Below, one piece after another: positions 7,945-9,602 of a DNA stretch of 9,649 nt. Made by a program: the position numbers and the translations under genes. Location: the UHGV virus genome UHGV-1443331, one strand, 5' to 3'. The notes under the pieces were generated by a model. It had not been told where the DNA came from, made no database searches, and was given only the letters and a program-made list of their open reading frames with translations. How positions within the stretch are numbered: position 1 is the stretch's first letter; each line of letters opens with the position of its first letter. Origin of the DNA: a virus.

Positions 7945-8113
7945 GAATAAATCCTCAAAATTGCAAAAATGACGACTTACTAACACATGAGTTCAGTAGT
8001 TCATTAGTGTTTTAACATTACATCAGTGAGCTAGTGAGTTCAAGAGGCTTGGATGATATGAGTTCATGAGCATGTATACTCACTTCAAATATTGCATTGA
8101 ACGAGCGTAAAAA
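7945..8113. promoter_or_regulatory. Divergent intergenic control region between gII (minus) and the plus-strand accessory operon, with iterated motifs; candidate operator and/or replication-origin repeats
   Basis: TGAGTTCA occurs three times (7988..7995, 8035..8042, 8059..8066) and AGTGAG-like half-sites four times (7994..8038). Possible -10 TATACT at 8075..8080 and -35-like TTGGAT at 8049..8054. Confidence 0.5.
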
Positions 8114-8296
8114 ATGGCAAAGCGCACGACTTATAACGTGACGGAAGAAAGAAAAATGAAACTAGAACGACTGGCTATAAATGCCAGTGTAAAACTAGGA
8201 AAAACAATTACATGGACAGAGATTTTAGGTTATCTGATTGATAACTACTCTAAAGATGCAGCAGAAGATCTCATGTCTGCCAAACAAAAGGATTAA
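8114..8296 (+). CDS. Small putative DNA-binding regulator (60 aa), possibly ribbon-helix-helix; candidate phage repressor
   Basis: ATG at 8114 transcribed divergently from gII. Sequence KRTTYNVTEERKMKLERLA fits a beta-strand followed by a helix as in RHH proteins; this is a pattern-level guess. Confidence 0.45.
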   Translation: MAKRTTYNVTEERKMKLERLAINASVKLGKTITWTEILGYLIDNYSKDAAEDLMSAKQKD

Positions 8297-8552
8297 GTAC
8301 CACGAATGGTACAAACGTGCAGTATTACCAACACTGCACGTTCTAGTTTGTGCAAAACTTAAACAAAAAGTAAGTCATCGAGATAAACAAAACGAGTCAA
8401 AGTATATACTGATGAATACGCCAAAAAAAAGTGAACAAAAACAGAATGATAAGCAACAAGGCTTTGCCCAAGATGGTTTGGACACATCTAAAGCAAAAAG
8501 GCTTTTAGAAAAAGCTCAACAATCCACTACTAAACCAACACAAGGAAAGTAA
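8238..8552 (+). CDS. Lys-rich small protein; start uncertain (track ATG 8238 overlaps the upstream ORF; alternative ATG at 8412 gives 46 aa)
   Basis: C-terminal motif GLDTSKAKRLLEKAQQ is echoed by GLNTSKASSLLAKIQS at the C-terminus of the next ORF, which argues this frame is coding at least from about 8412. Its stop TAA (8550..8552) lies 1 nt before the next ATG. Confidence 0.35.
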   Translation: MITTLKMQQKISCLPNKRIKYHEWYKRAVLPTLHVLVCAKLKQKVSHRDKQNESKYILMNTPKKSEQKQNDKQQGFAQDGLDTSKAKRLLEKAQQSTTKPTQGK

Positions 8553-8553
8553 T

Positions 8554-8829
8554 ATGTTATCTTTTCAGGTTTTCCTTTTTAAAAAAGCATTAGAGGAAGA
8601 ATTAGATATAATCAAATGGCATCCAACAAATGAACAATTGGAGGAGATGTTCAATGAGATAAAAAAACTCAGTGGCAATGAAAGCATCACTGAAGTTGAA
8701 AATATCGTTCATCGAATTTACAAAAAACCGATTACAAGAATGATTTGTAATGGATTGAATACATCGAAAGCAAGTTCGCTATTGGCAAAAATTCAATCCC
8801 AGTCAAATAACACTCAACAAAAAAGATAG
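8554..8829 (+). CDS. Hypothetical small protein (91 aa)
   Basis: Good Shine-Dalgarno (AAGGAAAG) 5 nt before the ATG at 8554; tightly coupled to flanking ORFs; shares the C-terminal motif with the upstream ORF. Confidence 0.6.
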   Translation: MLSFQVFLFKKALEEELDIIKWHPTNEQLEEMFNEIKKLSGNESITEVENIVHRIYKKPITRMICNGLNTSKASSLLAKIQSQSNNTQQKR

Positions 8830-9533
8830 TGAAATCAGATATGGATGTTCACGGTATCATTGATAATCAAAAAAAAGAAATTGAGCGTTTATATGAAAAA
8901 TATACTGAGTCATTAGAGTGTTACCTATCTGGTAAATGTGATTTTGATACCGTGAATTCATGTGGAGACAGTTTTTTCGGCTATTTAGAACACTGCGCTG
9001 CACATAACAGAACAGTAGATGAATTAAATAATACTCAATGGAATCAATGGCTTGCAGAAACATGCATTGATGTTCTTCACCTTATCTTAGCTCATTACAA
9101 AAAATATAGAGAGGTAATGAATGATAATAGTATTAAACCAAGCTCCACTGCTTTTGCTTCAATGCAAAGGATAGTAAAAGCCCATGACAAACGTTCTGCA
9201 AAAGAAATAAGGAATCTTTTCGTTAATGAAGATATGCCAGTATATGGATTTGACAATAAAGGAAAAGAAAAATTGACAAAAGCACACGAGAGAATAGCGG
9301 CATTTAGCTTTGGCATTTTACTTGTTATTCTTTTTATAATAATCGCAATATTTATACCTAATCCAACGAACTTTCAATACACTTTCTTTCGAATAATTCT
9401 TTCAGCAGCAGTTGCTGGGGTAGTCTCATTTATACCCGGGTTTATAGAAGTCAAAATATCAAACTGGGTAAGAGCAGGTGGAGCATTAGCTGTATTTGTG
9501 ATTGTCTATTACGTGGCTCCCGCAGCATTATGA
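8829..9533 (+). CDS. Membrane-anchored protein (234 aa): Cys-rich soluble N-terminal domain plus C-terminal region with 2-3 predicted TM helices; function unknown
   Basis: Start is GTG at 8829 (overlapping the upstream TAG) or ATG at 8841. Hydrophobic stretches AAFSFGILLVILFIIIAIFI, FFRIILSAAVAGVVSFIPGFI and AGGALAVFVIVYYVAPAAL; N-terminal Cys cluster CYLSGKCDFDTVNSCGDSFFGYLEHC. Followed by a strong terminator. Confidence 0.7.
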   Translation: MKSDMDVHGIIDNQKKEIERLYEKYTESLECYLSGKCDFDTVNSCGDSFFGYLEHCAAHNRTVDELNNTQWNQWLAETCIDVLHLILAHYKKYREVMNDNSIKPSSTAFASMQRIVKAHDKRSAKEIRNLFVNEDMPVYGFDNKGKEKLTKAHERIAAFSFGILLVILFIIIAIFIPNPTNFQYTFFRIILSAAVAGVVSFIPGFIEVKISNWVRAGGALAVFVIVYYVAPAAL

Positions 9534-9563
9534 ATTGGTTCGCACAATGACGTTATGCTAAAG

Positions 9564-9600
9564 AGGCCGCTGCGGGATTCTATTTTCGCAGCGGCCTTTT
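9564..9600 (+). terminator. Rho-independent terminator ending the plus-strand accessory operon
   Basis: Perfect 11-bp stem aggccgctgcg (9564..9574) with cgcagcggcct (9587..9597), 12-nt loop, then TTTT; 30 nt after the stop at 9533. Confidence 0.8.
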
Positions 9601-9602
9601 CA

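Follow-up and report, generated by a model that had tools for sequence, protein, structure and literature searches.

A swappable three-gene cassette in a dif-integrated filamentous prophage of Escherichia coli, a candidate membrane-acting exclusion system

CUS-1 and YpfΦ are filamentous phages (inoviruses) integrated at dif. In both, the segment next to attL carries a regulator gene divergent from the replication gene, followed by open reading frames (ORFs) without assigned function that vary among near-identical phages (orf1 and orf1a in CUS-1, YPO2271-YPO2273 in YpfΦ; PMC4266046). Here we analysed a prophage of the same family contained in UHGV virus genome UHGV-1443331, a stretch of 9,649 nucleotides (nt) that is called the window throughout. 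Four plus-strand ORFs (ORF1 to ORF4) occupy the same slot near its right end, and we show that ORF2, ORF3 and ORF4 are mobile cargo, ORF1 being conserved with the phage backbone. The original prediction, made from the sequence alone, had used as comparators the Ff and IKe phages, which have only non-coding DNA there. These were the wrong comparators, because the close relatives CUS-1 and YpfΦ are described with genes at the position of the plus-strand module (PMC4266046). Both phages were compared with the window through this published description and through the layout found in strain UTI89, a CUS-1 clone strain. UTI89 differs from the window by having an annotated helix-turn-helix (HTH) regulator instead of a non-HTH protein of 60 amino acids (aa), and cargo proteins of 140 and 369 aa instead of 46, 91 and 230 aa; the function of neither cargo is known.

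In phage lambda, the exclusion genes rexA and rexB lie directly downstream of the prophage repressor gene cI and encode a soluble partner and a polytopic inner-membrane protein. The cassette described here likewise consists of accessory genes past a putative repressor gene, with presumed expression in the lysogen and a proposed exclusion or abortive infection at the membrane. The likeness is confined to layout: no sequence or fold similarity, no Pfam match to RexA or RexB and no match among viral or PDB structures was found. Lambda has one sensor, whereas the cassette has two or more paralogous small partners, and its co-transcription is presumed. Within these bounds, cI-rexA-rexB would be the closest working analogy. 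Transmembrane effectors of abortive-infection systems include the two-transmembrane (2TM) effectors of CBASS and Pycsar, and SLATT. They share with ORF4 a short, conserved and promiscuous membrane module found on varied sensor or enzymatic domains, TIR included. The ORF4 module differs from them in having no match to SLATT or to any other membrane family of Pfam or PADLOC and in its fusions to periplasmic-type domains, and its pore formation is putative.

Short swappable cargo of about 1-2 kb has been described in other Xer/dif inoviruses, the Vibrio CTX-I phages, whose hypervariable regions (pHVRs) are enriched in defence and abortive-infection (Abi) genes and also occur in degraded elements (PMC12715192). 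The Vibrio pHVRs lie between zot and xafT, whereas the present slot lies between ORF1 and attP, on the other genome side from gI/zot, and no xafT homologue was seen in the present phage. Filamentous prophages of the Pf type carry genes for superinfection control, defence against lytic phages or toxin-antitoxin (TA) functions, namely PfsE, KKP and PfiAT (PMC8764522, PMC11341870, PMC12328805). The Pf modules differ from the cassette in consisting of unrelated proteins from another genus: KKP is a kinase-kinase-phosphatase system, and PfsE, a lone small membrane protein, acts on type IV pili.

Alignment with variant prophages delimited the cargo. In UM146, KE48 and the IMG/VR contig L011, the first ~400 nt and the last ~70 nt of the region were kept at ~98-99% identity and everything between them differed. 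The kept left segment comprised the gII/ORF1 intergenic region, ORF1 and the hairpin that follows it, and the kept right segment was the attP region. Identity stopped just past this hairpin, at the left edge of the variable slot, so that the breakpoints were placed at ~8345 and at the ORF4 stop codon (9533). Since the flanks are kept while the interior differs among near-identical prophages, ORF2-ORF4 are mobile cargo in a hypervariable slot, in which close relatives hold differing genes between conserved flanks. The original prediction had proposed a comparison with dif-integrated inoviruses to see whether the module is cargo, and for ORF2-ORF4 the answer was positive: prophages with 98-99% identical cores carry unrelated genes there. 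The G+C content was 33.4% for the cassette, 41.0% for the phage core and 46.9% for the host flank, in agreement with the module having been called more AT-rich than the core. Among 5426 complete E. coli genomes, the core was present in 52-57 and the full module in 22.

Two further observations concern the contents of the slot. A gene of ~140 aa, absent from the window, often directly follows the regulator in related prophages (L002, 1941-2363; L003, 3941-4363; L005, 10555-10977; L006, 6691-7107; L011, 5143-5565), and the translation of the L011 copy has several hydrophobic stretches. It is found in free combination with differing cargo further downstream, and the slot may thus consist of two sub-modules that are independent of each other. 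The UM146 cargo includes a small zinc-binding protein of the ECs_2282 family.

All four ORFs are on the plus strand, opposite to the canonical inovirus genes, as had been noted from the sequence, but they do not form the single four-gene accessory operon that had been proposed. The ORF1 protein (WP_001335098) was identical in UM146, KE48 and L011, all of which have other cargo. At least 1000 contigs of Salmonella, E. coli, Klebsiella and other bacteria contain its exact sequence, and inoviruses of Dickeya and Pectobacterium carry 67-aa genes in its position that are 53-57% identical. This conservation with the backbone ruled out ORF1 as cargo and shows it to be an ordinary conserved inovirus gene, an outcome that the original prediction had itself named as refuting its proposal. 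In 7CC and SCPM, which have 84-86% identical cores, and in UTI89, the ORF1 slot is occupied by an annotated HTH gene, which is HTH_3/CI-like in SCPM according to Pfam. The layout of ORF1 is RstR-like: a small, backbone-conserved gene, divergent from the replication gene over a shared control region, in a position that matches the rstR-like position described for YPO2273 (PMC4266046). By position, ORF1 is the backbone regulator and the counterpart of rstR, with putative repressor activity. Neither a Pfam scan nor PDB sequence-profile searches matched ORF1 to ribbon-helix-helix proteins. An hhalign comparison with CopG aligned the whole domain in register at a probability of only 9.8%, using an approximate CopG query; a ribbon-helix-helix fold is plausible.

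The control region shared by gII and ORF1 contains a promoter-like site on the plus strand (8053-8080) and three exact copies of TGAGTTCA (at 7988, 8035 and 8059), with a single further exact copy elsewhere in the window. These repeats are candidate operators. The hairpin located after ORF1 may act as a leaky terminator or an attenuator.

Sequence comparisons indicated that the first two cassette genes encode related small proteins. Conservation of ORF2 extended over 7 loci, in which the G-x-D-x-S…LL motif is invariant, and full-length paralogues of the same type (type A, 85-100 aa) were found in distant loci; judged by these alignments, ORF2 is a type A protein cut down to little beyond the motif. 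A longer ORF2 of 98-104 aa overlapping ORF1 (the PHROG profile has 98 aa) was rejected, as conservation between genera is limited to the 46 C-terminal residues and the longer frame contains the breakpoint of the cassette. ORF3 is separated from ORF2 by the TAA-T-ATG junction noticed in the original prediction and represents a second type (type B). Its AlphaFold2 model (AF2; mean predicted local distance difference test score, pLDDT, 70.6) showed a small alpha/beta domain with an invariant W-x-P-T turn, a disordered linker and a motif helix, GLNTSKASSLLAKIQ. Type A and type B proteins, both ~85-100 aa long in distant loci, were homologous in hhalign (probability 99.2%, E 1.7e-19), and by their sequences ORF2 and ORF3 are paralogues, presumably cytoplasmic, with a common C-terminal G-φ-D/N-x-S…LL helix.

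The same organisation was found in the relatives. Ahead of each ORF4-like gene with upstream DNA covered there were 1-4 small ORFs (46-112 aa) on the same strand, all ending in a G-[LIVA]-D-x-S…LL helix. A strict version of the motif had 31 matches in the 1.3-kb zones upstream of 19 ORF4-like genes and 0 matches in the six-frame translation of the other 582 kb. It was also absent from the five loci in which the membrane module is joined to other domains. The confinement of the motif to zones ahead of ORF4-like genes indicates that the small proteins go with the N-domain of ORF4 and not with its membrane module. In seven loci (L010, L014, L023, L034, L035, L044 and L045), the membrane gene is preceded by three ~85-aa paralogues or by two small-plus-medium pairs in tandem, so that the small-protein array expands and contracts. 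A PDB sequence-profile search with the small proteins was not significant; the best result was a motif-level likeness of RWNPTxEQL to WOX homeodomains (E 0.04), which was not adopted because many family members are acidic. Public records P0049, P0053, P0054 and P0275 label 91-aa ORF3 homologues as 'S-(hydroxymethyl)glutathione dehydrogenase', which appears to be a propagated misannotation.

ORF4 encodes the predicted inner-membrane protein of the cassette. The overlap of a TAG stop with a GTG start noted in the original prediction exists, but the ATG at 8841 is the likelier start: it is the RefSeq call, homologues begin with MD(I/V)HGII at this point, and it leaves an 11-nt spacer after ORF3. 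The AF2 model (pLDDT 77) showed a five-helix cytoplasmic N-domain (aa 3-129), a linker, three hydrophobic segments and a short beta hairpin; model and hydropathy placed the hydrophobic segments at ~150-175, 180-204 and 212-230. Residues W67, Q69, A72, E73, C75, P100, T103, Q109, R110 and a PxYGF motif in the linker were invariant in the family alignment. The polar N-domain residues among them (W67, Q69, E73, C75, T103, Q109 and R110) suggest a specific binding or catalytic surface, and the charge distribution indicates that the N-terminus of the membrane module is in the cytoplasm.

The membrane module was much more widespread than the cassette. It was found in 2,852 cluster representatives at E <= 1e-3 (of 1.84 billion; clusters at 50% identity) and its fusion partners, at either end, are many and unrelated: 163 extensions fell into 102 BLAST clusters. 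Recognised partners were TIR, FGE-sulfatase, ankyrin, BACON, CarboxypepD_reg, DUF3298 and DUF4019. Pfam scans matched the module itself to no family; PF27061, listed for the relative P0040, was outside the set of families scanned. A Foldseek comparison of ORF4 with viral structures returned nothing at E <= 0.001, PDB sequence-profile searches of the ORF1, ORF3 and ORF4 families were not significant, and fold and PDB sequence searches with ORF3 and ORF4 returned nothing usable for function. A 99% identical ORF4 fragment on a 536-nt contig of a Paenibacillus tengchongensis assembly (L022, NZ_WACP01000076.1, 0.7x coverage) is most likely contamination from enterobacterial DNA.

Full-length ORF4 homologues with 50-76% identity occurred in Dickeya, Pectobacterium, Proteus and metagenomes, and small ORFs of the ORF2/ORF3 type preceded the homologue in every locus examined. 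More distant ORF4-like genes (34-39% identity) were found by scanning one genome per species in Cedecea, eight Pseudomonas species, Paraburkholderia, Parazoarcus and Methylobacter, and in several metagenome-assembled genomes, some labelled Acidobacteriaceae and Actinomycetes. The set of two small genes and a membrane gene occupies the same slot in two further inovirus prophages, from Dickeya and Pectobacterium. It also occurs in non-phage loci of Proteus, Cedecea, Pseudomonas, Paraburkholderia, Methylobacter and others. A tblastn search with the phage core proteins detected inovirus genes in the enterobacterial loci only and not around the distant homologues. The cassette is a self-contained, horizontally mobile unit.

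Several of these loci adjoin defence or conflict genes. In Pseudomonas retamae (L030), a complete Gabija system lies directly downstream of the cassette (GajA, E 8e-205; GajB, E 8e-138), and ORF sizes indicated the same layout in P. salmasensis. Olokun OloA/OloB directly follows the cassette in Paraburkholderia (L026), and PifA lies upstream of it in P. frederiksbergensis (L033). Elsewhere, the cassette is flanked by AbiJ/Abi_C, a toxin-deaminase and an insertion sequence (IS) element (L014), has Abi_2 and a resolvase as neighbours (L045), or adjoins a TacA1/GNAT (TacAT-like) pair (L043). The Proteus locus contains an nSTAND3 neighbour and a gene read by eye as a putative PD-(D/E)xK nuclease.

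We propose, with a probability of roughly 0.5, that the cassette is a lysogen-expressed, membrane-acting exclusion or abortive-infection system. As a promoter scan predicted no promoter inside the cassette between 8345 and 8411, it would be read through from the promoter of the regulator, past the weak hairpin that follows ORF1, in lysogens and in replicative forms. The small proteins would dock via their common helix on the cytoplasmic N-domain of ORF4 and control the membrane module. Upon a trigger, for example infection by another phage, the module would perturb the inner membrane; the incoming phage would be excluded or its infection aborted, and the lysogen population, hence the prophage, would be protected. 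The cassette follows the phage regulator, and the virion genes lie on the other strand. The recurrent defence and conflict neighbours are consistent with this proposal, as is the fusion of the membrane module to TIR in some relatives. Hypervariable regions with defence genes (PMC12715192) and genes that exclude unrelated phages (PMC6813254) are both documented in inoviruses.

A number of results weigh against this proposal. None of the four proteins reached a curated Pfam or NCBIfam cut-off, and PADLOC v2.0.0 returned a single weak match, of ORF4 to Csx27 (E 0.0057), so that no catalogued defence system was significantly matched; the earlier statement that none of these proteins matches a recognised family therefore holds. 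The alternative cargoes of the same E. coli slot belonged to no identifiable family in Pfam, NCBIfam and PADLOC scans (sub-threshold matches only), and the slot itself is therefore not established as a defence hotspot. Most of the 95 neighbouring ORFs scanned around the relatives are housekeeping genes, and the guilt-by-association signal, read locus by locus, is moderate. Fusions of the membrane module to typically extracytoplasmic domains (BACON, CarboxypepD_reg, DUF4019 and DUF3298) may point to a specialised anchor rather than a pore. Co-transcription with ORF1, docking on ORF4, membrane toxicity and a phage phenotype are all inferred. The defence, exclusion or toxin-like role first suggested from the layout has thus become plausible through the Gabija, Olokun, PifA, AbiJ, Abi_2, nSTAND3 and TacAT-like neighbours, but no search returned a defence function.

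The tight coupling of small upstream genes to a larger membrane protein would also suit an addiction (TA-like) module, in which ORF4 is a membrane toxin curbed by the small proteins and post-segregational killing keeps an episomal or tandem prophage from being readily lost. Instability of the episome is described for YpfΦ-type phages (PMC4266046), TA pairs are frequent in inoviruses (PMC6813254), and homologous cassettes adjoin the TacA1/GNAT pair in one case and lie on mobile elements in others. We consider this explanation unlikely: Pfam, NCBIfam and PADLOC matched no type II toxin or antitoxin family, no DNA-binding domain of an antitoxin could be recognised in the small proteins, many of which are acidic, and TA systems do not usually include arrays of as many as four small paralogues. 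Stabilisation would also mean little for the many chromosomal copies that lie among housekeeping genes. It is quite unlikely that the cassette is a host-fitness or virulence moron unrelated to phages, whose membrane protein and partners would change the lysogen's envelope physiology or its tolerance of stress, for instance in extra-intestinal infection. The family is present in bacteria from soil and water, such as Pseudomonas, Paraburkholderia and Methylobacter, and shows no link to animal hosts. The repeated adjacency to defence and Abi genes speaks against such a moron as well, and no similarity to known virulence factors was found in Pfam or NCBIfam. It would nevertheless account for the modest in-vivo fitness gains that CUS-1 and YpfΦ give, their terminal ORFs being unexplained (PMC4266046). 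The listed E. coli carriers are mostly human isolates, including isolates from urine, and the neighbours of the distant homologues are mostly ordinary metabolic genes.

A strict C-terminal motif common to 1-4 tandem, otherwise divergent paralogues, always upstream of a membrane protein, could alternatively be a targeting signal read by the cytoplasmic domain of ORF4, with insertion or export through the membrane module; the flexible linker that parts the motif helix from the body in the ORF3 model would fit such a sorting device. Three hydrophobic segments with no ATPase or other energy source would however make a poor translocase, the small proteins do not have the features of secreted effectors, and neither Pfam and NCBIfam nor the fold search revealed similarity to any secretion component, which makes export very improbable. 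An ordinary function in the inovirus life cycle (replication control, virion extrusion or Xer activation for integration) is suggested by the position beside the regulator and attP, and Vibrio CTX-I phages have Xer-activating factors beside their hypervariable regions (PMC12715192). The cassette is missing from prophages at the same dif whose cores are 98-99% identical, and it is also found in non-phage loci; we give this explanation hardly any weight, as it is largely refuted for ORF2-4 and fits only ORF1 and the attP hairpin. An XafT-like role in Xer activation was ruled out by the cassette-free variants at the same dif.

Returning to exclusion or abortive infection, a broader version of this proposal is possible but tentative. 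The cassette would be the first recognised case of a widespread two-part membrane system, made of 1-4 small paralogues with a C-terminal docking helix (G-φ-D-N/T-S…LL) and a receptor/effector membrane protein. The three-segment module (~2,850 clusters) would serve as the plug-in membrane domain of many conflict proteins, and filamentous phages would shuttle this new anti-phage or exclusion system between Enterobacteriaceae. A cargo cassette in an inovirus is as such an already known kind of thing. All four proteins fall in PHROG families annotated as function unknown, no paper naming the cassette proteins by RefSeq accession was found, and all sources label them hypothetical. The small-protein array with a common helix, its dedicated membrane partner and the large Pfam-less family of membrane modules appear, as far as found, to be undescribed.

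Table 1 Coordinates of the prophage, its attachment sites and the plus-strand region in the window
Feature	Position	Strand	Size or energy	Remarks
Perfect E. coli dif, reverse complement, ATTTAACATAATATACATTATGCGCACC	1316-1343			Left prophage end; exact match to dif
Phage unit	1344-9630		8287 nt	From direct repeat spacing
Divergent gII/ORF1 intergenic control region	7987-8113		127 nt	Backbone; 99% conserved in prophages with different cargo
ORF1, regulator in rstR position (putative repressor)	8114-8296	+	60 aa	Backbone
Hairpin after ORF1	8314-8342	+	-18.9 kcal/mol	z = -3.3
Swappable three-gene cargo cassette (ORF2-ORF4)	8345-9533	+	1.19 kb	33.4% GC
ORF2, truncated type A small protein	8412-8552	+	46 aa	Retains only the shared C-terminal motif (FAQDGLDTSKAKRLLEKA)
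ORF3, type B small protein	8554-8829	+	91 aa	Alignments and AF2 model
ORF4	8841-9533	+	230 aa	Alternative GTG start at 8829
Membrane module of ORF4	9279-9530	+	aa 147-230	Three hydrophobic segments, IPNPTxFQY loop, PGF…RAGGALAVF element
Dif-like site, GGTTCGCACAA-TGACG-TTATGCTAAAG	9537-9563			Phage attachment region, backbone; sequence reading
Long inverted repeat/hairpin	9551-9610		-39 kcal/mol	z = -6.7; conserved across cargo variants
Imperfect (hybrid) dif, TTTCAACATAA-CGAGTCGTACA-TTATGCGCACC	9598-9630			Junction with next tandem prophage copy

Beyond the cassette, the attachment region contains a dif-like site that is kept in UM146, UTI89 and even ColV plasmids, and whose putative Xer arms were assigned by comparison with dif. 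The long hairpin that overlaps it consists of a 17-bp GC-rich inner stem followed by UUUUC, as expected of an intrinsic terminator; a simple terminator scan had missed it because of its stem- and loop-size limits. This hairpin probably has two roles, terminating the plus-strand operon and forming the stem of the attP structure. The module thus ends in a strong hairpin, as originally predicted, but this hairpin is part of the conserved dif-like attachment region and belongs to the phage backbone, not to the cargo.

The dif-like site with the hairpin (9537-9610; ~66-70 nt) also matched, at 90-99% identity, ~600-630 further records of E. coli, among them many ColV-type plasmids such as pAPEC-O78-ColV (L041, 2501-2566), in which the copy sits between a gene of the STM4504/CBY_0614 family and an IS200C fragment and has a XerC-like arm still closer to dif (GGTTCGCATAA). 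The plasmid copy could be a remnant of an Xer-dependent element or a plasmid Xer site.

The window represents an E. coli chromosomal segment with a filamentous prophage at dif, adjoining hipBA/hipA, and identical sequence was found in strains including BH100N, F11, MS 200-1 and ECONIH2. The canonical inovirus genes from gII to gIV (7986-2111) are all on the minus strand, and the ORF list and RefSeq annotation gave the Ff-like order gII-gV-gVII-gVIII-gIII-gVI-gI-gIV. The core was 98-100% identical in 49 E. coli records and 84% identical to the prophage of strain SCPM-O-B-12142, whose cargo proteins are common to the prophage of UTI89 (O18:K1). A 34-nt direct repeat (1329-1362 and 9616-9649) has a spacing of 8287. 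In single-copy lysogens the right flank departs from the window directly after TTATGCGCACCAA, which places the right end of the window at the boundary to a second tandem copy and not in host DNA. In agreement with this, tandem YpfΦ copies are joined via an imperfect inter-copy dif (PMC4266046), like the hybrid dif of the window. With an intact dif at one end, a hybrid dif at the inter-copy junction and a location next to hipA, the phage belongs to the dif-integrating inoviruses of the CUS-1/YpfΦ type.

Some features outside the slot were also recorded. Left of dif (72-1128), the host genes are decayed, with an SDR oxidoreductase pseudogene and, immediately before dif, a C-terminally truncated LysR-family regulator (RefSeq). 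At the other prophage end, after gIV, a second accessory pair on the minus strand (1382-1615 and 1733-2041) encodes proteins of 77 aa (CxxC…CxxC, zinc-ribbon-like) and 102 aa. Each belongs to a PHROG annotated as function unknown, and the two are probably the counterparts of YPO2280a and YPO2281. In gIII (5328-5462, minus strand), 15-nt tandem repeats encode a Gly/Ser-rich linker of the attachment protein, and the length of gIII varies between 400 and 474 aa among otherwise identical prophages, pointing to gain and loss of repeats. A perfect 16-nt inverted match connects 6877-6892 with 8542-8557 (~0.02 expected by chance in the window): the ribosome-binding context of ORF3 (AAGGAAAGTAATATGT) is the same as that of gV on the opposite strand, with stop-T-ATG coupling in both. 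Convergent translational coupling may account for this match, or it may mark a recombination seam.

CUS-1/YpfΦ-type phages influence the fitness of E. coli K1 and Yersinia pestis, and their terminal ORFs have been described as unexplained since 2002-2014. Should the cassette have no phage phenotype, the finding would shrink to a well-delimited, ordinary prophage moron. Two uncharacterised families can be flagged for annotation, one formed by the small motif proteins and the other by the membrane module, which is very widespread and lacks a Pfam entry. Collectively, the data presented indicate that one end of these phages is a cargo slot, and that its cargo in this prophage is an autonomous module found elsewhere beside Gabija, Olokun, PifA and Abi genes, which would make it a reasonable candidate for a phage-exclusion system.

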